From a bacterium (GTDB lineage: Bacteria; Blakebacterota; Blakebacteria; Blakebacterales; JAWOFN01): a DNA stretch of 60,775 nt. Under the pieces are notes generated by a model. That model had not been told where the DNA came from, made no database searches, and saw only the letters and a program-made list of their open reading frames with translations. Each line of letters begins with the position of its first letter. Within the stretch, counting starts at the first letter, position 1. Location of the stretch: positions 1-60,775 of the forward strand of contig JAWOFN010000125.1 of assembly GCA_046497505.1 (NCBI GenBank), given 5' to 3'. The position numbers were made by a program, and so were the translations under genes. Shown here piece after piece: positions 9,209-49,718 of the stretch.

Positions 9209-9833
9209 CTAGAAGTCGGTTACCTGTTTGATCGCGTTCCAGACACGGTAGTCGTCCGGCATGTAGAGCCCCTCAAGAGAGTATGGGAAGGGCATGCCGG
9301 AGGTCGATCACCTCGGCGGATATCCCCGCGTCTGCCGCCCCTCCCGCTGCCCGGCCGCACACAGGGACCATGGCTCCGTAGGCGATGAGGGTCACGTCCC
9401 CGATGCCCGCCGTATGGGCGAAGTGACTCTCGATGCTCTGGCTGTGATAGTGCCCGCCCCGGGTGCCGCCGCCGAAGGGAGTACGTATCACCATCGGCAG
9501 GGTGAACATCCCGGCGGACTTGTACCGGAACTTGGTGACCTCGCTGGGTATCTGGTCGAAGGGGGGCCAGATGAAGTCGGCGAACTGGATCTCGACCACC
9601 GGGTGCAGCCCATGCAGCGCCGTCCCGAAGGCCATCCCGACGATGCCGGATTCGTTGAGGGGCGTGTCGATCACCCGCTCCTCTCCGTACGCCTCGAAGA
9701 GTCCCTGTGGGGCCCGGAAGCCCCCTCCGTTGCCCCCCACGTCCTCCCCCAGGAGGACGATCTTTTCCTCCCGTCCCATCTCGTGGGCCAGGGCGGCGTT
9801 CACCTCCTGGATCAATGTCATGGTTCTCGGCAT
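9209..9833 (-). pseudogene. Branched-chain-type 2-oxoacid dehydrogenase E1 beta, with two internal deletions and a frameshift
   Basis: The N-terminal half is normal (MTLIQEVNAAL...HSQSIESHFAHTAGI). It then jumps directly to GDVTLIAYGAMV...AEVIDLR, with about 59 aa missing. It stops at 9273. The authentic C-terminus PFPYSLEGLYMPDDYRVWNAIKQVTDF* follows in another frame and ends at 9209-9211. Confidence 0.8.
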
Positions 9834-9900
9834 GCTCGCACCTCTGTGTGGACCGGACCGCCCTCGCCGCGGCTTCGCCGGCTGATCCCCCCCGTGGGGA

Positions 9901-10554
9901 CTAGTGCCGCTGCTGCTCCAGCTGGGGGGTGAGCTCGACGTATACGTCGACGAAGAGGCTGGAGACCGGGACGGCCGGCACGGATTCCTCCTCTTCCACG
10001 ATCCCGCCCAGCTCTTCCCGGGCGCGCTCGACGGCCTGACGGGTTGCCCAGTACATGGCCAGGACGTCGTTGCCGTCCACCCGGATCCCCTCCATCCCGT
10101 ACGCCTCCGCTTTCTGGGCCAGGGTCTCCGAAGCGGTCTGCTTCTCTCCCGGCAGGCTGATGGCCCATCCGTTGTTCTGACAGACAAACACGGCAGGGGC
10201 CTTGTACACCCCGGCGAAGTTGAGACCGGTGTGGAAGTCGCTGCTGCTGGTGGCACCGTCGCCGAAGTAGGCGATGGCGATACGGTCTCCCCCGGTGGGG
10301 CGTTCCGCTACGGCCCAGCCGGTACCGTGGATGATGTGTGTCCCGATGGGACTGGAGGGGGTGACGAAGCCGATCGTGTCCAGGCCGTAGTGGTTGGGCA
10401 TCTGGCGGCCCCTGCCGGGGTCCGCCTGGTTCCCGTAGAGCTGACCCATCAGGTCCTTGAGCGGCATGCCCCGGACCAGGGCCACGCTCAGTTCACGGTA
10501 GGCGGGGAAGACGAAGTCGTCCTCCTTGATGACGCTAGTCGGCTTCTTCGCCAT
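9901..10554 (-). pseudogene. Branched-chain-type 2-oxoacid dehydrogenase E1 alpha. It is an open 217-aa ORF but lacks the N-terminal ~100 aa and ~70 internal aa.
   Basis: The TPP motif is kept (YFGDGATS...CQNNGWAIS). The ORF begins at ...KEDDFVFPAYRE and jumps from AVERAREELGG to the C-terminal SSLFVDVYVELTPQLEQQ. The intact paralog at 44046.. serves as the length reference. Confidence 0.7.
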
Positions 10555-14315: not shown

Positions 14316-16679
14316 TCAGCGGGAAGACCGCCGGACGGTGTCGGACTGTGCAGGGAAACGATACCATACCTCCACATGCATCGCGGGGTCCACCACAACC
14401 TCGCTCCGCCGTGCCGCGGAAGGTCCGAACAGGGTTCCGGCCAGGTCGCCGGCGACGGAGGACATCAGGTGCAGGGAAAGGCCCGCCCCGGTCCGGACGC
14501 TCACCGGCAGGCGGAAGAGGTAGGTGAAGTCCGCTCCCGCGTCCATCACCACCAGCCGATGGCCGCTCCCGCTCTCCACCAGCCACCGGTCCCCGACCCG
14601 GGCGGAATCCGACGAAGCGAAAGTGAGACGGATGCCGTCGGCCAGGGCGGGCGAGGTGACCTCCACAAGCAGTTCCCCCTGGGTCCATCCTCCGCCCGTC
14701 CCCACCGTGTCGAACCGGGCCTCAGCCTGCCATCCGGTGGAGGGGGCGTCCTCCGGGACACGCAGCCGTGCCCGGGTGTCCCCTTCGATCTCCACCTCCC
14801 AGGCACTCTCCATCCCCAGGAGCCGGTCCCAGCTCCACACCGTGGCGTTGCGGGGCATCCCGTCCGCCCCGGCGTAGACGTCCACTTCCACCAGCTGGCG
14901 GAAACCGGACCGATAGGCAGGGAGCATCCAGGCGGTCAGGGACCCCGCCACGGTCAGCACCGTCAGCAGCAGGCCCACGGCGGGCCGGGAGGCCCGCAGC
15001 GCCGCGCCGGAGGGTTCGGTGCCCTCCTCGGGACGGGTCCCGCTGAGCGCGGGCCAGAGCCCTTGGAGGACCAGCGCCACCGGCCAGGCGAGCCACGCCC
15101 GGAGGGCCGCGGTGGCCAGCGGGGGTACACTCCATCCCATGAGGGTCACCGCTTCCCTGAGCACCCGGGGGCTCAGAGCGGATGCCAGGGGCCAGAAGGC
15201 GGGGATCAGCAGGACCAGGGCCGCCCATCCTCCCGTCTTCCCCGGCAGGGCCCGGACGGTGAAGAGGGCCGCCACCAGCCAGAGCGTCGCCCAGGCGAAT
15301 GGGAGGGCGCCGTCCGGTCCCACCACCACCGCCACCGCCAGCGCGTGCAGGCCCATGAGGAGGACCGCACCCCCCAGGTCCCGGTCCGGGGAACGGGGAC
15401 GGACGGAGGCGGAGAGACGGGCTGCCAGCCACGCCGCCAGCAGTCCCGAGGTCAGACCGGCCAGGGTGAAGAGGTCGGTGTGGGCCATCCAGGGGTGGAG
15501 GTAGCCGGTGAGGATCCGGTCGAGGAGGGCGGGGAGCCCGGCTCCGAAGCCGAAGGCCCCGGCGATGACCAGGCTGCGCAGTGCTCCAACCGGTCGGGGG
15601 AGGAAGCGGGTGCGCCCCAGCAGGAAGACCCCCGCCGCGGCCAGCAGACCCGCCAGGGTCCAGAGCCACAGCGTATTCCCCGACGGAAGGTAGGTGACCC
15701 AGGGTAGGGGAAGCACACCATAGAGGATATCCCCCTCCCCCGGCACCGGCATCTCCCTGTCGAAACGCAGGGCCAGCGACGCCATGAGGAGGGTCCCCTC
15801 CCCCAGGGTCCGCGGGTCCAGGTTCTCGGGCAGGTCCAGGGGCGTGTGGTACGACCAGCGCTCCATCCGGTTGCTCAGGGTCCAGGCCGGGATGCCCCGC
15901 TCCAGGAAGGGCCGGTGGTCCGCCCCGTAGGGCAGGGGCATGAGGCGGGGGAGCAGCACCCAGGCCGGGACCACGTCGAACCGTCCCAGGCCGCGGCGTC
16001 TCGCCTCATCCCGGGCCGCCTGCTGGAACCAGAGAGGGGCGGCCGTGGGCATGGGCGCCGAGAGGATGGGACCGAACCCCAGCGGGTCGGCGTTCACCAC
16101 CGCCCCCACCTCCCCCTCCTCCAGTCCCGCGGCATAGTGGGTCGCCCCGATGAGGCCGTCCTCCTCACCGGTGAAGATGACGAAGCGGATCTCGTGCCGG
16201 GTGGGGAGGTCCCTCAGCAGCCGGGCGGCCTCCAGGACGGCTGCCACCCCGCTCGCGTCGTCGTTCGCCCCCGGCGCCAGGCGGTCCACGGTGTCCATGT
16301 GGGCGCTAAGCACGATGGCCGGCCGATCCCCCGGCTTCACCGCGACCAGGTTGTGGGCACCGAGCAGGAAGCGGTCGGGGGACCAGGTGGAGCTGCTCCA
16401 CTCTCCCGGGATGTCGAGGACCCCCACCGGCTCCCGCCTCACCTCGCAGCCGAGCGCGCGGAACGTGCGTTCCGCGTAGACCATCCCCTCCGCCTCCGCC
16501 TCCGAACCGGCCGGGCGCGCACCGATCCGTCCGGCCAGCACCCTGACGTGGGTGTAGGCCGCCTCGCCCACCGGACCGGGGTCGGGCAGCTCCGGGAGGG
16601 GGGACTGCGCCCCCGCGGTGACCGGGAGGAGCAGCAGCGCGGAGAGGAGTGTCCCCGCGCCCCGGCGTGAGGTCCTCAC
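14316..16679 (-). CDS. M28-family metallopeptidase fused to a polytopic membrane domain (ERMP1-like architecture)
   Basis: Signal peptide, SAHMDTV...GANDDASG...FTGEEDGLIGA zinc-ligand motifs, then many hydrophobic segments. The GTG start overlaps the upstream stop (GTGA). Confidence 0.85.
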   Translation of the reverse strand: MRTSRRGAGTLLSALLLLPVTAGAQSPLPELPDPGPVGEAAYTHVRVLAGRIGARPAGSEAEAEGMVYAERTFRALGCEVRREPVGVLDIPGEWSSSTWSPDRFLLGAHNLVAVKPGDRPAIVLSAHMDTVDRLAPGANDDASGVAAVLEAARLLRDLPTRHEIRFVIFTGEEDGLIGATHYAAGLEEGEVGAVVNADPLGFGPILSAPMPTAAPLWFQQAARDEARRRGLGRFDVVPAWVLLPRLMPLPYGADHRPFLERGIPAWTLSNRMERWSYHTPLDLPENLDPRTLGEGTLLMASLALRFDREMPVPGEGDILYGVLPLPWVTYLPSGNTLWLWTLAGLLAAAGVFLLGRTRFLPRPVGALRSLVIAGAFGFGAGLPALLDRILTGYLHPWMAHTDLFTLAGLTSGLLAAWLAARLSASVRPRSPDRDLGGAVLLMGLHALAVAVVVGPDGALPFAWATLWLVAALFTVRALPGKTGGWAALVLLIPAFWPLASALSPRVLREAVTLMGWSVPPLATAALRAWLAWPVALVLQGLWPALSGTRPEEGTEPSGAALRASRPAVGLLLTVLTVAGSLTAWMLPAYRSGFRQLVEVDVYAGADGMPRNATVWSWDRLLGMESAWEVEIEGDTRARLRVPEDAPSTGWQAEARFDTVGTGGGWTQGELLVEVTSPALADGIRLTFASSDSARVGDRWLVESGSGHRLVVMDAGADFTYLFRLPVSVRTGAGLSLHLMSSVAGDLAGTLFGPSAARRSEVVVDPAMHVEVWYRFPAQSDTVRRSSR

Positions 16680-18652
16680 GCCTCCTCCCCGTCGGGGATG
16701 GCGTCGGCCACCAGTTCGATCACGTGCCGCACCTTGACCGGACGCTCGTCAAAGCCCTCCTGGGCCTTCAGCCCATCCTCCAGCATCGCCATGCAGAAGG
16801 GACAGGAGACGGCCAGGGTGGGGGCCCCGCTGTCCATGACCTCCCTGGCACGCTCCCAGGAGACCCGCGGCTCCTTCTCCTCCAGCCACATGTTCCCGCC
16901 TCCGGCCCCGCAGCAGAACCCCTCTTCCCGGTTCCTGCCCAGTTCCACCAGCTCGCCCCGGCTCCTCTCGACCAGCTCCCGCTGCGGGTCGTAGAGGTCG
17001 TTGTAGCGGCCGTAGAAACAGGAGTCGTGGTAGGCCACCCGGCCCGCGTCCCTTCCCTCCGTGATCCCCTGCTCAGCGACCAGCTCCCGGATGTATCCCT
17101 CGGCGCTCCGGACCCGGAAGGGGAGCTCCCGCCCCCACTCCTCGGGGAGGAAGTCCCGGTAATCCTTCTCGAACATCTGGAAGCAGTGGGGGTTGGTGAC
17201 CACGAGCTGGTGGAAGTCGAACCGGCGGAAGAGCTCGATGTTGGTCTCGGCGTTCATCTGGAAGAGGAGTTCGTTCCCCATCCTGCGGTAGTTCTCCCCG
17301 CAGCACACCTCCTCCTCCCCGATGATCCTCCAGTCCACCCCGTAGTGGTCGAGGACCTTCATCATGGCCCTCACCGTCTCGACGCTCCGGTCGTCGTAGA
17401 GACCCCAGCACCCCACCCAGAAGAGCACGTCGAACGACTCCCCCTGCTGCGCGACGGGCACCTCTCCCAGTCCCTGCACCGTCTCGGTCTTGGTGTGCGT
17501 CCCGTAGCCCCAGGGGTCGCCGCTCTGTTCCAGGTTCTTGAAGACCTGTGCGGCCCCCGGGGGGATGTCACCCTCGTCCAGGGCCTTATAACGGCGCATG
17601 TTGAGCATCATCGACATGTGGTCGATGTCCACCGGACACGCCTGTACGCATCCCAAACAGGTCGTGCACTCCCAGATGATCCGGCTGTCGATGACGTGGT
17701 CGATGAGGGGCTGCCGTTCCAGCAGATATCCCTCACCGGGACGCCCCCCATCCTCCCACTTCTCGCGGGCGGATGCCGCCTGCCTGCCGGGAGCCTGTTT
17801 CCCCGAGGCGTGGTACTTCAGGTCGACGATGAACTCCTTCGGGTTCAGCAGCTTCTCGGTGGCATAGGCGGGACACGCCTCCTGGCAGCGGCCGCACTCG
17901 ATACAAGTGATCAGGTCGAGGCGGTCCTTCCAGCTGAGGTGCTGGAGGGCGTTGGTCCCGTAGGCCTCTCCGACCTCCTCGTCCGGGATCTCCTCCAGGT
18001 CCATGAAGTCCATGATCTGGCGGTCGGTGAGCTGCTGGGTCACAGCGTTCACCGGCGCGCCCAGTATGTGGAAGTGCTTGGAGGTGGGGACGTAGGCCAG
18101 GAAGGAGAAGGCCACCATCAGGTGGGCGTATCCGGCGAACTCCCCGGCCGGAGCCCCCAGGGTCCTCTCCAGGATATGGGTGAGGGCGATCACCGCGATC
18201 AGCGCCAGCACCACACCCGACTCCCGGCTGTGGTAGGTGAGGTAGGAGGGCCGGGTCACATAACGCCGCCAGGCCAGCACGGCGATTCCCACCAGGATGG
18301 CCACCGCGAAGACGTCCACGATGACCTTGAACCAGGCGGCAGGCCCCACCAGGAAGCCCTCGCCTCCGCTCACCAGCTTCACGATGAGGTGGAGGGTGGA
18401 GACCACGAAGGCCAGGAAGCCCCAGAAGACGGCGGCATGGGCCCATCCCGCGGTCAGGCGTCTGCGCACCTTCGACTGGCCCAGGACCTCACTGAAGAAG
18501 ATCCAGACCCTCTGACCGATCCGGTCCGACCGGGATTCCGGCTTCCCCCGCATGACGAAGCGGACCTTGTCCGCCAGCAGGGCGCCGAAGACGGCCAGCG
18601 CGCCGATGAGGTAGATGCCTGCGATCAGGCGTACGATCTCATGAGGTGACAT
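16676..18652 (-). CDS. Membrane-anchored Fe-S oxidoreductase (NarI/HdrE-like TM domain + 2x[4Fe-4S] + two CCG domains; HdrD/DsrK-like)
   Basis: N-terminal His-containing TM helices, CIECGRCQEACP and CTTCLGCVQACP, and the CCG motifs VGCWG... and FCCGAGGG. Confidence 0.85.
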   Translation of the reverse strand: MSPHEIVRLIAGIYLIGALAVFGALLADKVRFVMRGKPESRSDRIGQRVWIFFSEVLGQSKVRRRLTAGWAHAAVFWGFLAFVVSTLHLIVKLVSGGEGFLVGPAAWFKVIVDVFAVAILVGIAVLAWRRYVTRPSYLTYHSRESGVVLALIAVIALTHILERTLGAPAGEFAGYAHLMVAFSFLAYVPTSKHFHILGAPVNAVTQQLTDRQIMDFMDLEEIPDEEVGEAYGTNALQHLSWKDRLDLITCIECGRCQEACPAYATEKLLNPKEFIVDLKYHASGKQAPGRQAASAREKWEDGGRPGEGYLLERQPLIDHVIDSRIIWECTTCLGCVQACPVDIDHMSMMLNMRRYKALDEGDIPPGAAQVFKNLEQSGDPWGYGTHTKTETVQGLGEVPVAQQGESFDVLFWVGCWGLYDDRSVETVRAMMKVLDHYGVDWRIIGEEEVCCGENYRRMGNELLFQMNAETNIELFRRFDFHQLVVTNPHCFQMFEKDYRDFLPEEWGRELPFRVRSAEGYIRELVAEQGITEGRDAGRVAYHDSCFYGRYNDLYDPQRELVERSRGELVELGRNREEGFCCGAGGGNMWLEEKEPRVSWERAREVMDSGAPTLAVSCPFCMAMLEDGLKAQEGFDERPVKVRHVIELVADAIPDGEEA

Positions 18653-27273: not shown

Positions 27274-28611
27274 TCAGTCGAGTTCCTCCCGCTCCGGGTC
27301 CACGCTCCGCCGGTAGTAATGGCGGAAGCGCTCCACGATGAGGGCCTCCTTCTCTTCCAGCCCCTTTTCCTCCCTCTTCAGGAGGTCGTGGAGTTCCTGC
27401 ACGGTCAGCTCCCCGAACCGGGCCATGTCCTCGGGATCGACCGGGTCCATGTTCCCTGATTCCAGGATCGAGACCACCCGGGAGAGGGGGAGGGCCTTGA
27501 ACGCCTCCACGAACGCCTGCTGGAAGTGGGTCCCGGAGTCGCTGTCGAGGATCTCCATGACCCGCTTGAACTCCATGCGGTCCCGATAGTGCCGGCGGCT
27601 CGTGATGGCGTCGAACACATCCCCCACCGCCATGATGCGGCCTGCCTCGGGGATCTCCTCCCCTGCCAGTCCCAGCGGGTACCCGTCGCCGTCCACCTTC
27701 TCGTGGTGGGTGGCGGCCATCATGGGGATCTCCTGTTTCTCCCGGTCGAAGTGGATCTTGTTGAGGATGTTGAGGGTATGCCGGGCGTGGGACTTGATGA
27801 TCTCGAACTCATCGTCGCTGAGCCGGCCGTCCTTGAAGAGCACCGACTCCGGCACCCCGATCTTGCCGATGTCGTGGAGCAGGGCCGCCACTCTTAGGAT
27901 CTCCAGCTGCTTCTCGGAGTAGCCCACCTCCTCGGCGATGGCCACCGTGTAGGCGGTGACCCGCTTGCTGTGCCCCGCGGTGATGGGGTCCCGGGCGTCC
28001 ATCGCGGTGGAGAGGGTCTCCACGAAGGAGACGAACGACTTCTTCTGCTCCTCGTAGAGCTGGGCGTTCTCCACCGCCACCGCGGCCTGACCCGCGAGGG
28101 CACAGAGCAGTTCGACGTCCTCGGAGGTGAAGGTCCCCTCTCCCTGTTTGTTCAGGACCTGCATGACCCCGACCCGCTCTCCCTTCTTGTCGTTCATGGG
28201 CACGGCCAGCACCGAGCGGGTCCGGTAGCCCGTTCGGCGATCCCACTCCTGGTTGAACCGCTCGTCCTCGTAGGCCTCCTCGATGTTCACCACCTCGCCC
28301 GTGGTGGCCACATGACCCGCCAGTCCCGCCTCCATGGGGAAGCGGATCTCGGTGAACCGGACTCCCTGGGCCACCTTCGACCAGAGCTCTTCGCTCTTCC
28401 AGTCGATGAGGAAGATGCTGGAACGGTCGGCCTCCATCACCTGGGTGGTCTTCCGTGCGATGAGGTCGAGGAGGTGGTCCAGGTCGAGGGTGCCTCCCAG
28501 GGCGCGCATGACCTCGTAGACGGCCCGGTAACGGGCCGCCTCACGGCGGAGTTCTTCCGTATCGGATCCTGCGCCGGGACCGTGACCTGCATGTGGGGCC
28601 TCTTCGGACAT
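27274..28611 (-). CDS. GAF-domain HD-GYP phosphodiesterase
   Basis: GAF region, then HDIGKIGVP and HHEKVDGDGYPLG. Confidence 0.9.
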   Translation of the reverse strand: MSEEAPHAGHGPGAGSDTEELRREAARYRAVYEVMRALGGTLDLDHLLDLIARKTTQVMEADRSSIFLIDWKSEELWSKVAQGVRFTEIRFPMEAGLAGHVATTGEVVNIEEAYEDERFNQEWDRRTGYRTRSVLAVPMNDKKGERVGVMQVLNKQGEGTFTSEDVELLCALAGQAAVAVENAQLYEEQKKSFVSFVETLSTAMDARDPITAGHSKRVTAYTVAIAEEVGYSEKQLEILRVAALLHDIGKIGVPESVLFKDGRLSDDEFEIIKSHARHTLNILNKIHFDREKQEIPMMAATHHEKVDGDGYPLGLAGEEIPEAGRIMAVGDVFDAITSRRHYRDRMEFKRVMEILDSDSGTHFQQAFVEAFKALPLSRVVSILESGNMDPVDPEDMARFGELTVQELHDLLKREEKGLEEKEALIVERFRHYYRRSVDPEREELD

Positions 28612-32729: not shown

Positions 32730-33266
32730 ATGACGCCGTCCAGCGCCTCCCCAGCAGCCGACGTGACCGGAACGGCTGCACCGGAAGTCGACCTGGGTCC
32801 GGTCGACCACATCCTCGAGGACCATCAGCATGATCGCACCCAGCTCATCGCCATCCTCCTCGACCTCCAGGAAGAGCTGGGATACCTCCCCGTCACAGGG
32901 CTGAAGTACGTAGCGCAGAACATGGAGGTCCCGCTCACCGAGATCTACGCGATCTCGACCTTCTACAAGTCTTTCCGCCTCACACCTCCCGGCAGGAAGC
33001 AGATCACGATCTGCCAGGGGACCGCCTGCCACGTGAGGGGGTCCGTGCAGGTCCAGCGGGAGTTCGAACGGCGGCTCGGGATCTGCGAGGGCGAGACCAC
33101 CCCGGACCTCTCGTTCGGCCTGGAGACGGTCGCCTGCGTGGGAGCCTGCGCCATCGGACCCGTCGTGATCGTGGATGATGAATATGTTGGCGAGATGACC
33201 CCCATGAAGGTCCCGGGACTCATCCGCAAGCTGGAGAAACAGATCGCATCGGAGAAGGTATCATGA
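32730..33266 (+). CDS. NuoE/HydC-like [2Fe-2S] thioredoxin-like ferredoxin subunit
   Basis: CQGTACHVRG...CVGACAIGP cluster motif. The ATG is at 32730 inside the longer ORF. Confidence 0.88.
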   Translation: MTPSSASPAADVTGTAAPEVDLGPVDHILEDHQHDRTQLIAILLDLQEELGYLPVTGLKYVAQNMEVPLTEIYAISTFYKSFRLTPPGRKQITICQGTACHVRGSVQVQREFERRLGICEGETTPDLSFGLETVACVGACAIGPVVIVDDEYVGEMTPMKVPGLIRKLEKQIASEKVS

Positions 33267-35128
33267 GTGCCGCCAGCCTGGATGTCTGGGAAGAACTCCG
33301 GGAAGCGCGGGCACACCCCCGGGACGAGGAACGCATCTGTGTGACTCTCTGTATGGGCCCCGGGTGTGTTGCCAGCGGTGCCGTGGCCGTCGAGAAGGCG
33401 TTCCAGGAGCGGCTTGCCGAAGCGGGTATCGAGGATGAAGTGGACTTCCGGAGCACGGGCTGTCACGGCTTCTGTGCCGGGGGGCCGCTTGCCACCATCG
33501 ATCCCCAGGGGGTTCTGTATCAGGGCGTGAAGGTCTCCGACGTCGGACGCATCGTGAAGCAGACGGTCGTGGAGGGGGAACTGCTTGAGGATCTGGTCTA
33601 TCACGATCCTGCGAGCGGTGACCCGGTCCCGCAGGAAGAGGAGATCCCCTTCTACCGGAACCAGAAGCGGACACTGCTCCTGGAGAACCGCCGGGTCGAT
33701 CCGGACAGCCTGGACGACTTCCTGGGTATCGGGGGCTATCATGCCCTGGCCCATACCTTTCAGTGGGTGAGTCCCCAGGGCGTAATCGACTTCGTCAGCC
33801 GCGCCGGACTCAGAGGACGCGGCGGAGCGGGCTTCCCCACCGGAAGGAAGTGGGACCTCGCCCGGAGACAGGAAGGCACACCGAAGTACATCGTATGCAA
33901 CGCGGACGAAGGTGACCCGGGGGCCTACATGGATCGGGGCATCCTGGAAGGCAATCCCCACCGTGTCATCGAGGGGATGGTCATAGGGGCCTACGCCATC
34001 GGGGCGTCCTCCGGCTTCGTATACGTGCGCCACGAGTATCCCATCGCCGTCAAGCGGATCACACGAGCCATCGAGGCGGCTGAAGAAGCAGGTCTGCTGG
34101 GTGAGGACATCCTGGGCAGCGGTTTCGATTTCGAACTCGAGGTGGTACGGGGCGCCGGGGCCTTCGTGTGCGGTGAGGAGACCGCTCTGATCGCCTCCCT
34201 GGAGGGTAAGGTGGGTGAACCGCATCAGCGCCCTCCCTTCCCCGTGGAACGCGGGTACCGGGGTCGCCCCACCGTGATCAACAACGTGGAGACCTGGGCC
34301 AACGTCCCCCACATCATCAACGAAGGACCGGAATGGTACGCATCCACCGGATCTGAGGGGAGCAAGGGGACGAAGATCTTCTCCCTTGTGGGCAAAGTCC
34401 GGAACACCGGACTCGTCGAGGTCCCCATGGGAACCACGATCCGCTCCCTCGTCTATGAGGTCGGGGGCGGGATGCCCGACGGAAGGGCCTTCAAGGCGAT
34501 CCAGACCGGAGGCCCCGCGGGGGGGTGCCTCCCCGAAGGACTCATCGACCTGCCCATCGACTTCGAGGCCCTCAAGCATGCCGGAGCCATCATGGGCTCC
34601 GGGGGCCTGATCGTGATGGACGAGACCACCTGCATGGTGGACGTCGCCAGGTACTTCACACGCTTCCTGGAAGAGGAGTCGTGCGGTAAGTGCTACTCCT
34701 GCCGCAAGGGCACCCAGAGGATGCGCGAACTCCTTGACGACATCTGTGAAGGACGTGGAACACTGGACCACCTGGACCTGCTGGAAGAGCTGGGAGAGAC
34801 GGTGAACCTGACCAGCATGTGCGGTCTGGGACAGAACGCAGCGAACCCGGTGCTCTCCACCCTGAAGTACTTCCGCGAGGAATATGAGGCGCACATCCTC
34901 GAGCACCGCTGTCCGGCAGAGGTCTGCAGCGCCCTGATCCGCTATGAGATCACGGCCGACCTGTGTGACGGTTGTCATGCCTGTGTGAAGGTGTGTCCCG
35001 CCGACGCCATCAGGGGTGAGAAGGACCACGTCCACTTCATCGAGGACGAGACCTGCATCAAGTGCGGCAGCTGTCTGGATGTGTGCGCCAAGGACGCGGT
35101 GACGGTGATCTCCGGAGGTGAGGCATGA
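33263..35128 (+). CDS. NuoF/HydB-like NADH-binding FMN Fe-S flavoprotein, with an N-terminal 2Fe-2S domain and a C-terminal 2x[4Fe-4S] domain
   Basis: CMGPGC...GCHGFCAGGP; GLRGRGGAGFPTGRKW; ESCGKCYSCRKG; CDGCHACVKVCP and CIKCGSCLDVC. ATGA overlap with the upstream gene. Confidence 0.92.
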   Translation: MSAASLDVWEELREARAHPRDEERICVTLCMGPGCVASGAVAVEKAFQERLAEAGIEDEVDFRSTGCHGFCAGGPLATIDPQGVLYQGVKVSDVGRIVKQTVVEGELLEDLVYHDPASGDPVPQEEEIPFYRNQKRTLLLENRRVDPDSLDDFLGIGGYHALAHTFQWVSPQGVIDFVSRAGLRGRGGAGFPTGRKWDLARRQEGTPKYIVCNADEGDPGAYMDRGILEGNPHRVIEGMVIGAYAIGASSGFVYVRHEYPIAVKRITRAIEAAEEAGLLGEDILGSGFDFELEVVRGAGAFVCGEETALIASLEGKVGEPHQRPPFPVERGYRGRPTVINNVETWANVPHIINEGPEWYASTGSEGSKGTKIFSLVGKVRNTGLVEVPMGTTIRSLVYEVGGGMPDGRAFKAIQTGGPAGGCLPEGLIDLPIDFEALKHAGAIMGSGGLIVMDETTCMVDVARYFTRFLEEESCGKCYSCRKGTQRMRELLDDICEGRGTLDHLDLLEELGETVNLTSMCGLGQNAANPVLSTLKYFREEYEAHILEHRCPAEVCSALIRYEITADLCDGCHACVKVCPADAIRGEKDHVHFIEDETCIKCGSCLDVCAKDAVTVISGGEA

Positions 35129-35862
35129 AACGGATACAGCTCACCATCGACGGGCTCCCGGTGCAGGTGGACGAGGGGACGACGATCCTGGAGGCCTCGC
35201 GGATGTACGGGATCGACATCCCCACCCTCTGTCACGATGACGGACTGAGTCCCTACGGGGCCTGCCGGCTCTGCATCGTGGAGGTCGGGCCGCCGCACAG
35301 TTCAAAAGTCGTCTCCTCCTGCACCTACCGGTGCGAGGAGGGACTGGAGGTGCGGACCCATTCACGGCGCGTGATCAACGCCCGGAAGGTGGTCCTGGAA
35401 CTCATGGTGGCTTCGAGTCCCGGTTCGAAGACCCTCCAGGACCTGGCTGCCGCCCACGGTGTCACGAAGATGCGGTTCCGACCCGAATCGGAGGACTGCA
35501 TCCTCTGCGGCCTCTGTGTCCGGATGTGTGAGGAGCAGATGATGGCCTCGGCTATCGGTTTCGTGGGGCGGGGACCCGACCGCCGGATCACCACCCCGTT
35601 CGACGAGCTGAGCGAGCTGTGCCGCCACTGCGGAGGATGCATGTACATCTGCCCCATCTGCGAGCTCCGCTGCATGGGACCGGCAGCGGAGACGACACTC
35701 TGCAGCGGCTGTCTCAACCTGCCCCCTTCGTGCGTCGAAGTGTACGACCATCAGCAGTGCTGGATGCCGCCCTCGTGCGGCACCTGCGTGCGTCCCGAAG
35801 GCGAGTATCTGCCCGCCGCCGGACGTGTGATCGAGATCGAGACAGACAACACTCAGGAGTAA
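35125..35862 (+). CDS. Fe-S subunit resembling only the N-terminal part of NuoG/HydA (2Fe-2S + 2x[4Fe-4S]); no catalytic domain
   Basis: GACRLCIVEV, CILCGLCVRMC, CRHCGGCMYICP and a Cys-rich tail. ATGA overlap with the nuoF-like gene. Confidence 0.85.
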   Translation: MKRIQLTIDGLPVQVDEGTTILEASRMYGIDIPTLCHDDGLSPYGACRLCIVEVGPPHSSKVVSSCTYRCEEGLEVRTHSRRVINARKVVLELMVASSPGSKTLQDLAAAHGVTKMRFRPESEDCILCGLCVRMCEEQMMASAIGFVGRGPDRRITTPFDELSELCRHCGGCMYICPICELRCMGPAAETTLCSGCLNLPPSCVEVYDHQQCWMPPSCGTCVRPEGEYLPAAGRVIEIETDNTQE

Positions 35863-35905
35863 CCCAGGCCCGGCATAGCGCGGGAACCTTTTAGGAGGAG
35901 CGGCA

Positions 35906-37486
35906 ATGTCCTTCACGCGGATCAACGCAAGCGCAGCGACCCTCTCCAAGAACCGGACCGAAGGGAGCATCACACCCATCAGCGGCATGTGCGTCACGTG
36001 TGTGGACGGATGCGTGGGCATGTGCGAGATCGGGAAGTCCGCCTATCGCGGCCCGGAGATGATCTATCCCCAGCCTTTCGGGATCATCACCACCGCCTCG
36101 GAGAAGGACTACCCGCACGACTACGGCGACCTGACCATCCTAGGTACGTGCGTGGGGGCCCACGGCATCGAGGCGGATTCCGACAAGGCGATCTTCCCGA
36201 ACGTGAAGCTGGAGCGCCAGATCGGCATCGCGAAGGAGATCACGGCCTCGCTCCCCTTCGTCATCGCCGGGATGGGCTCCACCAACGTGGCCGCCCAGAA
36301 CTGGGAAGGCCTCGCGGCCGGCGCCGCCATCTCCGGTGTCCCCATGGTCATCGGCGAGAACGTCGTGGGCATGGACATGAACTCGGTCATCGAAGACGAC
36401 CGGGTGAAGAGCAGTCCCGAACTGGAACGCCGGGTCCGTCTCTACACCGACTGGCAGATCGACGGCAGGGGGAAGATCATCCTCCAGTCCAACATCGAGG
36501 ACACCCGCCTGGGCGTTCAGGAGTTCGCCATCGAGAACCTCGGTGTCGAGGCCGTGGAGCTGAAGTGGGGCCAGGGCGCCAAGGATATCGGCGGCGAGGT
36601 GAAGATCACAAACCTGGACAAGGCCCAGGAACTCTACAGACGCGGCTATGTCGTGCTCCCCGACCCCACCGACCCGGAGGTGGTCGAGGCCTTCAAGAGT
36701 GGAGTCTTCCACGAGTTCGAACGGCACAGCCGGGTGGGCATGGTGAGCGAGGAGTCCTTCATCAAGCGGGTGGAGGAACTTCGGGCCGCAGGCGCGAAGT
36801 ACGTGACGCTCAAGACCGGTGCCTACCGTCCCGCCGACCTGGCCCGGGCCATCAAGTTCGCCTCCATCGCCGAGCTCGACCTCCTCACGGTCGACGGCGC
36901 CGGCGGCGGTACGGGCATGAGCCCCTGGCGGATGATGAACGAGTGGGGCGTCCCGGTGCTTGAGATCCACAGCCTGCTCTGGCAGATGGCCGACAAGCTG
37001 AACGGCAAGGGTGAGTACGTCCCCGACCTGGCCCTGGCCGGCGGGTTCACCTTCGAGGACCAGATCTTCAAGGGTCTGGCCCTGGGTGCCCCCTACGTGA
37101 AGCTCATCGGTATGGCCCGTGCGCCCCTGGCCGCCGCCATGGTGGGCAAGACCATCGGGAAGCACATCGACGAGGGCATGCTGCCCGTCTTCGTGAGCCG
37201 TTTCGGGGGCAGCCGGGAGGAGGTCTTCGTGACGGCCCCTGAGGTGAAGAAGCTCCTGGGGAACGAGCGCTTCACGGAGCTGCCCACCGGCGCGCTGGGT
37301 GTCTACTCCTACTTCGCCCGTCTCGCACAGGGTGTGGAGCAGCTCGCCGCCGGTTCCAGGAAGTTCAACCTGGACGAGATCGGCCGCGACGACGTGGCCT
37401 GCCTCACCCGGGAAGCCGCCGACATCACGGGCATCCCGTACGTCACCGAGGTGGACGCCGAAGAAGTGGAGCAGATCCTGGCCTGA
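35906..37486 (+). CDS. Stand-alone glutamate-synthase FMN-domain (GltB domain 2 family) oxidoreductase with an N-terminal Cys cluster
   Basis: CVTCVDGCVGMC; LKWGQGAKDIGGE; TVDGAGGGTGMSP; LAGGFTFEDQIFKGLALGA. AGGAGG lies 6 nt upstream of the ATG. Confidence 0.88.
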   Translation: MSFTRINASAATLSKNRTEGSITPISGMCVTCVDGCVGMCEIGKSAYRGPEMIYPQPFGIITTASEKDYPHDYGDLTILGTCVGAHGIEADSDKAIFPNVKLERQIGIAKEITASLPFVIAGMGSTNVAAQNWEGLAAGAAISGVPMVIGENVVGMDMNSVIEDDRVKSSPELERRVRLYTDWQIDGRGKIILQSNIEDTRLGVQEFAIENLGVEAVELKWGQGAKDIGGEVKITNLDKAQELYRRGYVVLPDPTDPEVVEAFKSGVFHEFERHSRVGMVSEESFIKRVEELRAAGAKYVTLKTGAYRPADLARAIKFASIAELDLLTVDGAGGGTGMSPWRMMNEWGVPVLEIHSLLWQMADKLNGKGEYVPDLALAGGFTFEDQIFKGLALGAPYVKLIGMARAPLAAAMVGKTIGKHIDEGMLPVFVSRFGGSREEVFVTAPEVKKLLGNERFTELPTGALGVYSYFARLAQGVEQLAAGSRKFNLDEIGRDDVACLTREAADITGIPYVTEVDAEEVEQILA

Positions 37487-37539
37487 GGCGGGATCCACAC
37501 CGTACCCCCTACGGGGCTTCCGGGCCCCTCACCCCCGGC

Positions 37540-37576
37540 GCCCTCCGCGTTCTCCCGCGGAGGGCGTCTTCTTTCC
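37540..37576 (+). terminator. Intrinsic terminator after the NuoEF/GltS-like operon
   Basis: Stem GCCCTCCGCG/CGCGGAGGGC with a 6-nt loop, followed by GTCTTCTTTCC. Confidence 0.55.
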
Positions 37577-37742: not shown

Positions 37743-38690
37743 TCAGGACGCGGGGGGAGGATGTCTGCGCCCTCCCGCCGAAGAGGGCATCTCCCGTCCG
37801 GTCAGGTGGTAGAGGGACTCCACCAGTTCAGGATGCCGGAAGGTGTACCCCGCATCCTCCGCTTCCCGGGGTACCGCCCGGCGAGAGGCGAGGAGTTCGA
37901 TGGCGAACTCCCCCAGCATGAGACGGAGTGCGAAGGCCGGGACCGGGAAGAGCGCGGGACGCCGCAGCACCCTGCCGAGGACCCGGGTGAAGACCCGGTT
38001 CTGTACCGGGGCGGGAGCGACGGCGTTGACCGGACCGGAGAGCTCCGGCTCCCGGAGGGCGTGCTGGAAGATCCCCGTCACGTCCTCGATGTGGACCCAC
38101 GGCCAGTACTGCTCTCCGCTCCCCATCCTTCCCCCCAGACCCAGCTTGAAGAGGGGAAGGAGTTTCTCCATGGCGCCCCCCTCCTCCCCCATGACCAGGC
38201 CGATGCGGGGGTTCACCACCCGGATCCCGGCGTTCTCCGCCTTCCGGGCCTCTCTCTCCCACGCCTCACACACCTCGGAGAGGAAGATGCTGCCCGGATC
38301 GGCGTCTTCGGTGAGGAGCTCCTCTCCCCGATCTCCGTAGTAGCCCACGGCACTGGCGCTGACCAGCACCCCGGGACGTTCCTCCAGGTCGAGCATGGCA
38401 GCGACGAGGTTGCGGGTCCCCCTCACCCTGCTCTCCCTGATCTTCCGCTTCTTCTCGGCCGTCCATCGCCCGTCGACCGGTTCCCCGGCGAGGTGGATCA
38501 CGCCCTGCACGCCGCGGAAGGCCTGCTCCGGCGGAGGTCCGGTCATGGGATCCCACCGGTGGACCTCCACCCCGGGGCCCAGCGCGGGCCGGGCACGGTC
38601 CGGGTCGCGGCTGAGGGCCACCACGTCGTCGAGCCCGGCCAGGATCCGGCCCCCGATGAATCCTGTAGCACCTGTCATCAGCACTCGCAT
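37743..38690 (-). CDS. TIGR01777-type (YfcH-like) NAD-dependent epimerase/dehydratase-family protein
   Basis: MTGATGFIGG Rossmann motif and the C-terminal DUF1731-like GYTFRHPEL. Confidence 0.85.
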   Translation of the reverse strand: MRVLMTGATGFIGGRILAGLDDVVALSRDPDRARPALGPGVEVHRWDPMTGPPPEQAFRGVQGVIHLAGEPVDGRWTAEKKRKIRESRVRGTRNLVAAMLDLEERPGVLVSASAVGYYGDRGEELLTEDADPGSIFLSEVCEAWEREARKAENAGIRVVNPRIGLVMGEEGGAMEKLLPLFKLGLGGRMGSGEQYWPWVHIEDVTGIFQHALREPELSGPVNAVAPAPVQNRVFTRVLGRVLRRPALFPVPAFALRLMLGEFAIELLASRRAVPREAEDAGYTFRHPELVESLYHLTGREMPSSAGGRRHPPPAS

Positions 38691-38745
38691 AGGCGTCTCC
38701 GGCTTCGGGGGTCCCTATCGGGTCGCGTGCGCACAGGATATCCCA

Positions 38746-38773
38746 TTGTCTACTTGTTGTCAAACTTTAGAAT
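38746..38773 (+). promoter_or_regulatory. Putative promoter in the AT-richer divergent spacer
   Basis: TTGTCT-16 nt-TAGAAT, about 48 nt upstream of the ATG at 38821. Confidence 0.3.
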
Positions 38774-38820
38774 GGATATGGCTTGTACGGTCGCGTGCCG
38801 GGTGCTATCTTCCCGCCTGC

Positions 38821-39561
38821 ATGTCATCCTCACTCCCGGATATCCTCACCGAGCATCCCCGGGTGCGCGTCCGCCGCGGTGGACCTCCCGATATCGACGG
38901 TGCGGCCGTGGTGTACTGGATGCAGCGTGCCCAGCGGGCGGAGGACAATCCCGCCCTGGAAGCGACCGTCGTGGCCGCCAACGATACGGGCCGGCCCCTC
39001 CTGGTGCTCCTCCGCCTCGTCGACGACGTCCCGGGGGCCGGCGCAGCCGCCGCTCGTGAGACGCTGGAGCGATTCGTCGACGGGACCCTGGCGGTGAACT
39101 ACGTCACGCATGAACCGGACTACGACCGATGGGAGGGGCTTCCGGACTGGGGCCGCGAGACCCTGGCCAAGCACGCACGTGACGAGCGCCCTCATCTCTA
39201 TCCCCGGGAGGAACTGGAGGCCGCCGCCACCCACGACCCGCTCTGGAACGCCGGCATGCTGGAGATGAAGAAGACCGGCTTCATGCACGGCTATGTCCGG
39301 ATGTACGGGGCCAGGAAGATCCTCCACTGGAGTTCCGAACCCGAGGAGGCCCTGGCGACCGCCATCTTCCTCAACGACCGCTGGTTCCTGGATGGAAGGG
39401 ACCCGAACGGATATGCGAACATCGCCTGGGCCGTCGGAGGACTGCACGACCACCCGTGGCCCGAGCGGGAGGTCTTCGGCAACGTCCGCTCCATGACCTA
39501 CAACAGCACCTCGAAGAAGTTCGACCGTGCCTCCTACATCCAGCAGGTGGAGCGGCTGTGA
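38821..39561 (+). pseudogene. Class II CPD photolyase with a ~200+ aa in-frame internal deletion
   Basis: The N-terminus VVYWMQRAQRAEDNPAL and the C-terminus THDPLWNAGMLEMKKTGFMHGYVRMYGARKILHW...LNDRWFLDGRDPNGYANIAW are class II photolyase hallmarks. The ORF is only 246 aa, and the whole middle of the family is absent. Confidence 0.75.
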
Positions 39562-39682
39562 TCCCCATCCGCGGGCACACTCCCTGAAAGATCCGTGTCG
39601 GGACCTTACCCCCCCCGGGGACTCAAGCTGCGCAACCGCGTGTGAGGGCACCGGGTGGAACCTGATTCAGGACTCCCGGCTC

Positions 39683-39758: not shown

Positions 39759-41099
<1,341 letters not shown>

Positions 41100-43069: not shown

Positions 43070-44062
43070 TCAGAAGCCCAGTACCTCCCGGGCCGCATTG
43101 AGGATCCGGTCCTCACCGGGGAGGTACTCCTCTTCCCGGCTGAAGAGGGGGACCTGGATGTCGTACCCGGTCACCCGGGCCACCGGGGCCTCGAGCCAGA
43201 GCAGGCACTGGTCGTTGATCCGGGCCACGATCTCCGAGCCCAACCCCAGGCTGCGGGGTGCTTCGTGCACGACCACGGCCCGGCCCGTCTTCTTCACCGA
43301 CTCGATGACCGTCCCGCTGTCCATGGGTGAGAGGGTCACCAGGTCGATGACCTCCGCGCTCACCCCGTCCTCCTCGGCCAGCGTCTCGGCCGCTTCCAGC
43401 GACCGGGGGAGCATGGCCCCGTAGGAGATGATGACGAGGTCCTCACCCTCCCGGACGATGTCCGCCTTCCCCAGCTCAGCGGGGGTGTCGGCCTCCTCGG
43501 GGACCTCCTCCTTGCCGTGGCGGTAGAGCGCCTTCGGTTCCAGGAAGATCACCGGGTCCGGGTCCCTCAGAGCAGCGAGGAGCAGGTCGTGCGCCTTCCG
43601 GGGAGAGGACGGCACCACCACCTTGATGCCGGGGGTGTGGATGTAGTAGGTCTCCCGGCTCTCGCTGTGGTGCTCCAGGGCGTGCACTCCGGCCCCATAG
43701 GGGATCCTGACCACCAGGGGGACGGTGAAGCGTCCCTGGGTCCGCTTGCGGAAGCGGGCGACATGGTTCTCGATATGATAGAAGCCGTGGTAGGAGAACC
43801 CCATGAACTGGAGCTCCGCCACGGGACGGAAGCCGGCGATGGCCAGCCCCGTCGCGGTGCCGATGATGCCCGCCTCGGCCAGGGGGGTGTCGAAGACCCG
43901 CTGGTCCCCGAACTCGTCGATGAGCCCGTCGGTGACCCGGAACACGCCCCCATCCACACCCACGTCCTCACCCATCACCAGGACCTTCTCGTTCCGGCGC
44001 ATCTCCTCGAACAGGGTGGTGTTGATGGCCTGCACCATGGTCATCTCAGGCATGGGAACCAC
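43070..44062 (-). CDS. 2-oxoacid (pyruvate/branched-chain) dehydrogenase E1 beta, intact
   Basis: Full-length 330 aa (VMGEDVG..GGVFRVT, FDTPLAE, PYGAG). The real start may be the ATG at 44053 or 44044, next to the E1 alpha stop. Confidence 0.92.
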   Translation of the reverse strand: MVPMPEMTMVQAINTTLFEEMRRNEKVLVMGEDVGVDGGVFRVTDGLIDEFGDQRVFDTPLAEAGIIGTATGLAIAGFRPVAELQFMGFSYHGFYHIENHVARFRKRTQGRFTVPLVVRIPYGAGVHALEHHSESRETYYIHTPGIKVVVPSSPRKAHDLLLAALRDPDPVIFLEPKALYRHGKEEVPEEADTPAELGKADIVREGEDLVIISYGAMLPRSLEAAETLAEEDGVSAEVIDLVTLSPMDSGTVIESVKKTGRAVVVHEAPRSLGLGSEIVARINDQCLLWLEAPVARVTGYDIQVPLFSREEEYLPGEDRILNAAREVLGF

Positions 44063-45047
44063 CCTTCGGACGGATGACGCCCTCCCCGGTCATCTCCACG
44101 CCGTTCAGGAACTCCTCACGCTGCCGGGCGGTGTAGGCGGGGAGCTCGGAGAGGGCGTAAGCGAACATGTCGGGACGATCGGCGTCCAGCTCCTCCTTCT
44201 TCTCCTCGTACCGCTTCACCGCCTCGCGGACCTCCTCCTCGACTTCTTCGGCCCATCCCTGGTCCTCCTCCTCGGTGAGATGGTCCCGGGAGATGAGGTA
44301 GTCCCTGAGCCGGGGCAGCGGGTCCCGTTCCTCCCAATCCCTCACCTCGCCCTCCTCGCGGTACTTCTTCGGGTCGTCCGCGGTGGTATGGACCGAGAGA
44401 CGGTAGGTCACCGCCTCGATGAGCGCCGGACCGTCGCCGCCCCGGGCCCGGTCCACCGCCTCCTTCGTCGCCGCGTACACGGCCAGCAGGTCGTTGCCGT
44501 CCACCTGGATTCCGGGCATCCCATAGGCGATGGCCTTCTGGGCGATGGTCTTCGCCCGGGTCTGCCGGCTGCGCGGGACGCTGATGGCGAAGTGGTTGTT
44601 CTGACAGATGAAGATGGTCGGGGTCTGGAAGACCATGGCCCAGTTCCACGCCTCGTGCAGGTCCCCTTCCGAAGTCGCCCCGTCACCGAAGTAGGTGATG
44701 GCCACCGTGTCCTCACCGGAGAGCTTCGAGGCCCATGAGAGCCCCACCGCGTGCAGGGGCTGGCTCCCGACCGGGATGGCGATGGGCAGGTCCCGGGTTC
44801 CCTCGGGGATATCGATTCCCTCCTCGTAGCCAGCGGCGTAGAGGAGGTCGTCCTCGATCTTCGCCCCCCGCCACATGGCGGCGGCGGTCTCCCGGAAGGC
44901 GGGGACGAACCAGTCGTCCTCCCGCAGGGCGTAGATGCTGCCCAGCTGGGCGGCTTCCTGACCCTTCACCGGTGCGAACGTGCCGATACGTCCCTGGCGC
45001 TGCATGCGCAGCCGGGTCTCGTCGTACCGGCGGGTCAGGAGCATCAT
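44046..45047 (-). CDS. 2-oxoacid dehydrogenase E1 alpha, intact; N-terminus probably extends further (see finding)
   Basis: TPP motif YFGDGATSEG...CQNNHFAIS. Coordinates run from the first canonical ATG. Confidence 0.9.
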   Translation of the reverse strand: MMLLTRRYDETRLRMQRQGRIGTFAPVKGQEAAQLGSIYALREDDWFVPAFRETAAAMWRGAKIEDDLLYAAGYEEGIDIPEGTRDLPIAIPVGSQPLHAVGLSWASKLSGEDTVAITYFGDGATSEGDLHEAWNWAMVFQTPTIFICQNNHFAISVPRSRQTRAKTIAQKAIAYGMPGIQVDGNDLLAVYAATKEAVDRARGGDGPALIEAVTYRLSVHTTADDPKKYREEGEVRDWEERDPLPRLRDYLISRDHLTEEEDQGWAEEVEEEVREAVKRYEEKKEELDADRPDMFAYALSELPAYTARQREEFLNGVEMTGEGVIRPKGGSHA

Positions 45048-48165: not shown

Positions 48166-48293
48166 GGGTCCTCCCGAGGCCGCTCCGCTCCCCAACCGAC
48201 GTGTCGTTGCCAGCGGCCCGCCGAATCGGTATCTCTACACACTCTGGACCCCCTCGCCGGTACGGGACGATCCCGCAGACAACGAGGAGTCGG

Positions 48294-49718
<1,425 letters not shown>

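Follow-up and report, generated by a model that had tools for sequence, protein, structure and literature searches.

The 60,775-nucleotide stretch of DNA analysed here (contig JAWOFN010000125.1 of assembly GCA_046497505.1, from a bacterium of the Blakebacterota; hereafter the window) carries a four-gene operon that probably encodes an uncharacterised Type-2 member of the Bfu family of flavin-based bifurcating enzymes. We propose that its products form one soluble four-subunit complex in which a third substrate would be reduced at a glutamate-synthase-like FMN site, with NADH and ferredoxin as the donors. The parts of this proposal do not stand equally firm: a four-subunit Bfu-type complex is very likely, genuine coupling to ferredoxin is somewhat favoured, and 2-oxoglutarate plus free ammonia as the third substrate is a tentative suggestion. 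The BfuABC family and the short BfuA of Type 2 are known already; what is new, to judge from the literature searched, is the combination of a Bfu core with a GltS-like FMN module.

The operon and its Bfu core

The operon comprises the following features (positions are those of the window).

32730..33266, + strand: BfuC gene (NuoE/HydC-like subunit); an upstream TTG at 32631 is a possible alternative start
33263..35128, + strand: BfuB gene (NuoF/HydB-like subunit, 621 aa), with predicted sites for an N-terminal [2Fe-2S] (B5), FMN/NAD(H), [4Fe-4S] B1, the His/Cys site B2 (zinc) and a C-terminal 2x[4Fe-4S] (B3/B4)
35125..35862, + strand: short BfuA gene (245 aa)
35893..35898, + strand: ribosome-binding site AGGAGG, 7 nt 5' of the ATG at 35906, read from the sequence
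35906..37486, + strand: gene of the GltS-like FMN subunit (GltSx, 526 aa)
37537..37568, + strand: terminator-like hairpin of 13 pairs, 11 of them G-C, followed by a T-rich tail, from a consensus scan and reading of the sequence

The four genes are co-directional and packed into one unit, as an initial annotation of this DNA had described, and the signals that it had placed around them (two ATGA overlaps, a Shine-Dalgarno sequence ahead of the fourth gene and a hairpin near 37540) were all located. The junctions between the BfuC and BfuB genes (tatcATGAgtg, 33263-33266) and between the genes of BfuB and BfuA (ggcATGAaac, 35125-35128) can be read directly, and by these two overlaps the first three genes are judged to be translationally coupled. 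The GltS-like gene follows the short BfuA gene after a gap of 43 nt, and a single terminator closes the operon. All four open reading frames (ORFs) are supported as genuine genes by their codon-position GC; by the same measure a 690-aa ORF on the minus strand (32963-35035), antisense to the BfuB gene, was rejected as a high-GC artefact. A consensus scan gave no sigma-70 promoter for the operon, no sigma-54 promoter pattern was found in the window, and no riboswitch was detected there upstream of or inside the operon.

The first subunit had been described as a NuoE/HydC-like 2Fe-2S protein, and this was confirmed: Pfam 2Fe-2S_thioredx matched with an E value of 1.2e-45, indicating a thioredoxin-like [2Fe-2S] domain (the C1 cluster), and the top matches among solved structures were HydC of a bifurcating hydrogenase (8a6t_C, E 7e-40) and NiFe-HydC (7t2r_C), with the 24-kDa subunits of complex I ranking below. 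BfuB gave matches to Complex1_51K (161 bits), SLBB and NADH_4Fe-4S (114 bits), a C-terminal Fer4 dicluster at residues 562-618 and a weak N-terminal match to 2Fe-2S_thioredx. Its residues 25-613 aligned end to end with HydB of the Acetomicrobium mobile NiFe bifurcating hydrogenase (7t2r_B, E 9e-224), which scored 748 bits against about 360 bits for NuoF, and respiratory NuoF aligned with the central 400 residues only. Other aligned relatives were HydB of two FeFe bifurcating hydrogenases (7q4v, 8a6t), WorB (709 bits) and NfnB. Both the domain matches and the full-length alignment thus bear out the assignment of BfuB as a HydB-type flavoprotein with an extra N-terminal 2Fe-2S domain and a C-terminal 2x[4Fe-4S] domain.

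Five residues of the B2 His/Cys site (C438, C476, H525, C531 and C536 in A. mobile) separate bifurcating BfuB from its non-bifurcating homologues (Schut et al., PMC9304861); the site is kept in nearly all Bfu members and absent from those homologues (PMC9304861), and later structures assigned a zinc to it (PMC11829005). In the BfuB of the window, C457, C495, H544, C550 and C555 align with these five residues, and none of the eight Cys in its C-terminal dicluster domain is missing. In solved relatives this C-terminal domain (B3/B4) binds ferredoxin, and the [2Fe-2S] cluster of BfuC swings between the FMN and the ferredoxin arm. Among solved enzymes, HydABC and NiFe-HydABCSL (7t2r, 7q4v, 8a6t, 7p5h) have the B and C subunits nearest to those of the window, share their domain order and carry the same His/Cys site in BfuB; unlike them, the cassette of the window has neither an H-cluster nor a NiFe module, and its BfuA is truncated after the ferredoxin-like domain.

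The short BfuA, a truncated NuoG/HydA N-terminus with Pfam Fer2_4 and Fer4_7 domains, has WorA as its best solved relative (9mqx_A, 247 aa, E 5.6e-39). Twelve invariant Cys occupy the positions expected for A1, A2 and A4 (36, 47, 50 and 66; 125, 128, 131 and 135; 166, 169, 172 and 176), and the protein is accordingly annotated by us, from sequence, as holding one [2Fe-2S] (A1) and two [4Fe-4S] (A2, A4). The initial annotation had remarked on a replaced His/Cys cluster motif and an extra Cys-rich tail. Both are real: the VLELMVASSPGSKTLQ stretch contains no His or Cys, nor do residues 88-120, as in WorA, so that the His-ligated A3 is missing, and the tail carries eight further invariant Cys (179, 183, 193, 196, 203, 212, 218 and 221). 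The missing cluster is not a peculiarity of this protein, however, because it is a known hallmark of Type 2 BfuA such as WorA (PMC9304861, PMC12318220).

Type 2 is defined by a BfuA without A3 and A5 and by an added subunit with the third-substrate site (PMC9304861). WorA has A1, A2 and A4 and no His-ligated A3, a C-terminal Cys-containing adaptor docks its catalytic module, and an A4-A2-A1 route leads from the added subunit (PMC12318220). In the operon of the window A3 is absent and an added subunit is present; the Cys-rich tail has a predicted local distance difference test score (pLDDT) of ~40 in the AlphaFold2 model, at which the grouping of its eight Cys is not modelled; four of them may form either an A5-like cluster or a zinc site. 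The WorABCSL enzyme of A. mobile (9mqx, PMC12318220), itself of Type 2, shares with the cassette a BfuB/BfuC core, a BfuA of ~245 aa with A1, A2 and A4 but no A3, and a Cys-containing C-terminal adaptor. It differs in that a nanowire-forming tungstopterin aldehyde oxidoreductase (WorSL) serves as its added module, where the cassette has a single FMN/Cys4 TIM barrel, and in that the tail of WorA has four Cys binding zinc rather than eight invariant ones. By sequence, BfuC, BfuB and BfuA are all closer to subunits of solved bifurcating enzymes than to complex I, and each examined sequence feature by which the Bfu family is recognised (PMC9304861) was found in the BfuB domains, the B2 site, BfuC and BfuA.

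Conservation of the cassette and its two forms

We compared 82 loci, consisting of 80 genome loci fetched by similarity to the GltS-like subunit, loci from KSB1 assemblies and the window. The loci carry up to 10 kb on each side and were searched with the window proteins, the parts of Escherichia coli GltB and GltD. In all 82 the gene just upstream of the GltS-like gene encodes a short BfuA. Upstream DNA is sufficient in 74 loci; every one of these has the NuoF-like gene in the same order, and most gave a NuoE-like match. Wherever the upstream DNA suffices, the order NuoE-NuoF-BfuA-GltS-like is kept. The cassette therefore recurs far beyond this genome, in some 20 lineages at the phylum level: Gemmatimonadota, Aminicenantes/Acidobacteriota, Firmicutes, KSB1, Planctomycetota, Zixibacteria, Latescibacterota, Acetothermia, Aerophobetes, Marinimicrobia, Desulfobacterota, Bacteroidota/Ignavibacteria, Fibrobacterota, Spirochaetota, Riflebacteria, Wallbacteria and Coatesbacteria among them, together with one Thermoplasmata metagenome-assembled genome (MAG). 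These source phyla are mostly known from metagenomes alone. The GltS-like subunit is the most conserved of the four (68-81% identity), followed by the short BfuA (~60%), NuoF (~55%) and NuoE (~45%).

Two forms of the operon could be distinguished. In the short form (29 of the 74 complete loci, the window among them) the 2x[4Fe-4S] domain forms the C-terminal end of BfuB. In the other 45 the NuoF-like protein reaches ~1000 aa and is fused to a GltD-like NADPH/FAD module (Fer4_20 plus Pyr_redox_2), which replaces the C-terminal ferredoxin-binding dicluster domain (for example L001:3512-6577 and L067:4792-7674, with 43 other loci likewise). In a neighbour-joining tree of the GltS-like subunit, a quick and approximate distance tree, the long and short forms interleave, with ~16 parsimony changes over 72 tips, from which it appears that the same catalytic subunit works with either arm, ferredoxin or GltD-like.

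The long form recalls NfnABC and Stn (9n5u, 8oh5; PMC11829005, PMC12018979, PMC10482914), which likewise combine a Bfu core with a GltD/NfnL-like NADPH-FAD module. In those enzymes, however, the GltD-like domain resides in BfuA and NADP(H) is the third substrate, whereas in the long form it is fused C-terminally to BfuB in exchange for the ferredoxin-binding domain and is accompanied by an additional FMN subunit; a GltD-like domain is lacking in the window itself. The HydB-GltA(GltD) fusions of archaeal hybrid hydrogenases also join a NuoF/HydB-like subunit to a C-terminal domain like glutamate synthase's small subunit, but those complexes contain hydrogenase subunits and no GltS-like FMN subunit has been described in them (PMC11216029). 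We found no description in the literature of a HydB-GltD fusion occurring together with a GltS-like FMN subunit.

The remaining parts of a conventional glutamate synthase (GOGAT) were sought by tblastn (E<1e-5). With the E. coli GltB parts as queries, the 82 loci yielded no amidotransferase, central or GXGXG gene within 10 kb; no homologue of these or of GltD was found in the 60.8-kb window, and Pfam scans of most other window ORFs revealed no GOGAT parts either. The initial statement that amidotransferase, GXGXG and GltD-like proteins are lacking nearby consequently holds for the window and, as regards amidotransferase and GXGXG, for all loci; it does not extend to GltD, given the module fused to the NuoF-like protein in the long form.

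Some loci show additional features. L011, from a Dethiobacter MAG, has a second copy of the FMN gene (60% identical) outside the cassette, ~5.9 kb upstream, and L073 (Wallbacteria) has a second BfuC-BfuB-BfuA set on the opposite strand, +2.3 to +5.5 kb downstream. Fourteen loci (L025:5714-6070 and 13 others) have, between NuoE and NuoF, a 118-aa Cys-rich ORF without a Pfam match, and many loci encode a NuoE of ~280 aa with a Cys-rich, zinc-ribbon-like C-terminal extension (e.g. L018:5237-6085); both are absent from the window.

The GltS-like subunit, the proposed mechanism and its alternatives

The fourth subunit matched Pfam Glu_synthase (PF01645) with 54.7 bits against a cut-off of 20.4, so that all five domains anticipated for the operon (2Fe-2S_thioredx, Complex1_51K, NADH_4Fe-4S, Fer2_4 and Glu_synthase) were recovered, the last of them partially. 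No NCBIfam model matched the protein, Pfam FMN_dh gave no match at E<=0.01, and a sequence search against solved structures returned nothing even at E<=1. AlphaFold2 produced an FMN-type TIM barrel with a predicted template modelling score (pTM) of 0.82 and residues 1-67 unmodelled. The N-terminal CxxCx3Cx3C motif (C29, C32, C36, C40), whose Cys are the only invariant ones in 72 of 72 sequences, presumably binds one [4Fe-4S]. The protein had been called a stand-alone FMN TIM barrel of the GltB-domain-2 kind; the barrel and the Cys4 motif stand, while its relation to the FMN domain of glutamate synthase appears partial and distant.

The family is tight and separate. One search gave only 1023 matches at E<=1e-3 among 1.84 billion representatives, few of them full-length, and another search for homologues gave at least 8000 clusters at 90% identity; 183 of the 526 positions are near-invariant, and the nearest relatives of the window protein come from Gemmatimonadota MAGs (79-81% identity). 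In a pairwise alignment to GltB several motifs are colinear: ILQ...RLGV; KWGQGAK against KVAQGAKPGEGG; DGAGGGTGMSP against AGYDGGTGASP; and AGGF...KGLALGA. Like GltBD and ferredoxin-GltS, the complex would thus have an FMN TIM barrel with phosphate-binding and QGAK motifs, supplied with electrons through Fe-S clusters by a pyridine-nucleotide flavoprotein, and most related loci do encode a GltD-like partner; unlike them, the cassette lacks the glutaminase, central and beta-helix domains and the [3Fe-4S] cluster, has an N-terminal Cys4 motif instead, and uses a Bfu module as the reductase. As there is no [3Fe-4S], no amidotransferase, central or GXGXG part and the domain match is partial, the subunit should not be filed as a GOGAT, although it may work like the synthase half of one.

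By analogy with WorABCSL and NfnABC, the coupling site would consist of the BfuB FMN, its [4Fe-4S] cluster and the BfuC [2Fe-2S] cluster (PMC12318220, PMC11829005). The BfuC cluster would shuttle low-potential electrons to or from the BfuB C-terminal clusters and ferredoxin, while the A1-A2-A4 chain, the Cys-rich tail of BfuA and the Cys4 cluster would wire this core to the FMN in the fourth subunit, which presumably catalyses the reaction of the third substrate. We adopted the confurcating direction because Schut et al. proposed simultaneous oxidation of NADH and reduced ferredoxin for high-potential third substrates (PMC9304861). NADH and reduced ferredoxin would then jointly feed a two-electron reduction at the glutamate-synthase-like FMN, and in the long form NADPH would substitute for ferredoxin by way of the fused GltD-like module. 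The reading of the initial annotation, HydABC/Bfu-type subunit logic with a GltS-like module in place of the hydrogenase or formate dehydrogenase, gains support from the best solved matches and from the conserved cassette.

The FMN domain of GltS naturally takes GltD as its reductase partner. Because of the GltS motifs, the frequent GltD fusion, neighbouring glutamate dehydrogenase (GDH) genes and NtrC-like regulators, we tentatively place the enzyme at the 2-oxoglutarate/ammonia/glutamate node, where it would reduce 2-iminoglutarate to glutamate without a glutaminase, as a glutamine-independent glutamate synthase driven by NADH and ferredoxin. Within 10 kb of the cassette, 17 loci belonging to at least 8 phylum-level groups carry GDH genes (L001:9784-11070, L049:3666-4991 and 15 others), which lie directly downstream on the same strand in 10 of them; their best NCBIfam models are of the GdhA/GdhB types, with scores below the cut-offs. 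Upstream of the cassette, 27 loci encode a sigma-54-dependent NtrC/AtoC-like response regulator and 22 a GAF-HisKA sensor kinase (for example L074:3212-4576 and L015:1473-3185, with ~25 other loci; the distance to the FMN gene is 5.5-10 kb), and sigma-54-like sites (TGGCAC-N5-TTGC-like) precede NuoE in ~10 related loci.

A number of observations weigh against the proposal as a whole, and most of them concern the substrate. The Glu_synthase match spans residues 279-400 and profile positions 185-303 of 369 only, about one third of the model; hhalign against E. coli GltB gave a probability of 57% for the C-terminal part only (~residues 321-498), and the family hidden Markov model aligned with GltB at positions 319-398 only, the FMN-phosphate half. 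The three Cys that bind the GltS [3Fe-4S] are absent, the region aligned to the E. coli C-x5-C-x4-C stretch having no Cys at all, the PPPHHDIYSIEDL-type motif of GltS is not conserved in the family, and the conserved Lys may serve the flavin instead of any particular substrate. When the AlphaFold2 model was compared with the PDB by Foldseek, alpha-hydroxy-acid oxidases ranked slightly above GltS: flavocytochrome b2, glycolate oxidase and lactate oxidase led with E values of ~1e-10 (11-16% identity) against 1.8e-8 for GltS, and type 2 IPP isomerase was matched too. Because all these matches are generic FMN TIM barrels with a template modelling score of ~0.45, the fold leaves a GltS and a glycolate-oxidase-type subfamily unseparated. 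GDH, moreover, is a neighbour in about a fifth of the loci only.

It is on these grounds quite conceivable, if not what we favour, that the same complex acts on a substrate unrelated to glutamate, another C=O, C=N or C=C compound: 2-oxoglutarate reduced to 2-hydroxyglutarate, for instance, or another 2-oxo acid, a cyclic imine or an enoate. The confinement of significant GltB alignment to the FMN-phosphate half of the barrel, the order of the Foldseek matches, the loss of the [3Fe-4S] and PPPHHDIYSIEDL-type motifs and the lack of an NCBIfam model all suit this alternative. Set against them are the Glu_synthase score above the curated cut-off with no FMN_dh match, the QGAK and DGxGGTGxSP motifs colinear with GltB, and the GltD fusion and GDH neighbours, which indicate the glutamate/2-oxoglutarate node.

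A second group of objections concerns the coupling to ferredoxin, since bifurcation or confurcation is here deduced from homology, and some HydB-like enzymes are reportedly non-bifurcating. The couple of 2-oxoglutarate plus NH4+ with glutamate lies near -0.1 V, and from this potential the reduction of 2-iminoglutarate needs no ferredoxin thermodynamically; an imine or 2-oxo acid is a high-potential acceptor that NADH by itself suffices to reduce. The complex might then be a plain NADH-dependent reductase with a linear path from the BfuB FMN through BfuA to the GltS-like FMN, its BfuB C-terminal clusters being an optional entry for ferredoxin or vestigial. The exchange of the ferredoxin-binding domain for the GltD-like NADPH module in 45 of 74 loci and the interleaving of the two forms would likewise make ferredoxin dispensable for the chemistry at the fourth subunit. 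We nevertheless regard this alternative as unlikely: the B2 His/Cys site, absent from non-bifurcating homologues (PMC9304861), is kept in BfuB, and BfuC, the N-terminal [2Fe-2S] domain and the eight Cys of the C-terminal dicluster are all retained.

The proposed single complex also has to be weighed against two separate enzymes that happen to be adjacent, with BfuABC serving a partner elsewhere and the FMN protein acting as a free-standing ferredoxin-dependent reductase. The same caveat was raised for other predicted Bfu clusters (PMC9304861). AlphaFold2 is uninformative for both presumed interface regions, the BfuA tail and the N-terminal 67 residues of the FMN subunit, and a Firmicutes subfamily of the FMN protein, 44% identical and with the Cys4 motif kept, occurs without Bfu genes. 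Adjacency in 82 of 82 loci from ~20 phyla in a fixed order, the coupling of the first three genes with the fourth following after 43 nt under one terminator, a short BfuA without a catalytic domain that requires an added subunit, and the fact that hydrogenase, formate dehydrogenase and WOR genes were not found among the window ORFs scanned make this reading very improbable. We infer that the ancestral FMN protein took electrons through its own cluster from a soluble carrier and that the Bfu-linked clade was later hard-wired to the Bfu core. The Firmicutes proteins (516 aa) are found at L085:10001-11551 (Sedimentibacter sp. MB31-C6), L086 and L087, and the Sedimentibacter copy sits within a cluster of DUF134, NifX-like, MinD-type Fer4 ATPase and Mrp genes.

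Finally, an ordinary split, archaeal-type glutamate synthase, in which the 526-aa protein would be the FMN subunit, amidotransferase and GXGXG proteins would be encoded elsewhere and Bfu would replace GltD, has a precedent in the split GltS genes of Archaea (PMC8097209), but was rejected as the main explanation and is highly unlikely, the partner genes being absent within 10 kb from all loci compared and from the window, the GltS [3Fe-4S] ligands missing and much of the domain without significant alignment to GltB.

Genomic context and significance

Around the operon, the window contains two genes that may relate to it:

39759-41099, + strand: NADP-dependent isocitrate dehydrogenase, which makes 2-oxoglutarate, 2.3 kb downstream of the operon
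48201-49718: GDH-type ORF (505 aa), 11 kb downstream of the operon

The isocitrate dehydrogenase scored 561 bits with TIGR00183, just below the cut-off of 567, and above the cut-off of NF005425. The window has neither an NtrC/AtoC-like regulator nor a GAF-HisKA kinase; a GAF-HD protein is encoded at 27274-28611 on the opposite strand. Overlapping ORFs at 38395-39561 (+) and 38830-39651 (-) have no Pfam match at 1e-5, the C-terminal half of the plus-strand ORF being photolyase-like by eye. Further genes encode an HdrD-like protein with two CCG domains and a 4Fe-4S dicluster, two 2-oxoacid dehydrogenase sets (E1/E2/E3) and a B12-dependent methionine synthase (in this order 16676-18652, 6496-10554, 43070-45047 and 534-4652, all on the minus strand), and several peptidases (S49, M28, M49) are encoded elsewhere in the window. 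From these genes the host would seem to degrade proteins and to possess dehydrogenases of the aerobic type.

Among the related loci, a protein of ~990 aa with a receiver and a PPDK_N (phosphoenolpyruvate/pyruvate-binding) domain is encoded near the cassette in L060:2112-5090, L001:11476-14238 and 6 other loci, in many cases immediately 3' of the FMN or the GDH gene. A riboswitch search of seven related loci, each in full, gave a single match, a c-di-GMP-I-GGC riboswitch at L072:14218-14392 (+) in a Syntrophobacterales MAG (61 bits, above the gathering score); it lies ~2.6 kb downstream of the cassette and appears unrelated to the operon.

When the Bfu family was defined in 2022, 17 of 57 BfuB clades had no function and more third substrates were predicted; the third-substrate modules listed were hydrogenase, formate dehydrogenase, Nfn, WOR, Bam, POR, CODH, F420, rubrerythrin and Nuo, and none was GltS-like (PMC9304861). 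A search of full-text literature, including papers on Bfu, Stn, Nfn, WOR and genomes and the supplement of PMC9304861, with subscription journals mostly outside its coverage, revealed no account of a GltS-like FMN protein combined with a Bfu/HydBC module, and hence no paper in which this exact architecture is already characterised. The cassette is a concrete candidate to fill this gap in the Bfu family.

If the third substrate is 2-oxoglutarate plus ammonia, the energy coupling of ferredoxin and NADH would be tied directly to nitrogen assimilation, and the annotation of glutamate metabolism in these lineages would change. The boldest form of the proposal, which we consider rather doubtful at present, is a way of assimilating ammonia that was not recognised before: a glutamate synthase independent of both glutamine and ATP, whose Bfu core would use NADH with low-potential ferredoxin, or NADPH instead of ferredoxin in the form with fused GltD, to drive the reductive amination of 2-oxoglutarate at a stand-alone GltS-like FMN site. 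Such an enzyme would bring a new third substrate to the Bfu family and would be widespread in uncultured anaerobic or facultative phyla, including the Aminicenantes, Zixibacteria, KSB1, Planctomycetota, Ignavibacteria and Gemmatimonadota. Should the substrate be something else, the cassette would still define a testable and abundant orphan enzyme, and the repeated swap of the ferredoxin-binding domain and the GltD-like NADPH module on one scaffold would offer a natural experiment on the rewiring of the low-potential arm of Bfu enzymes.

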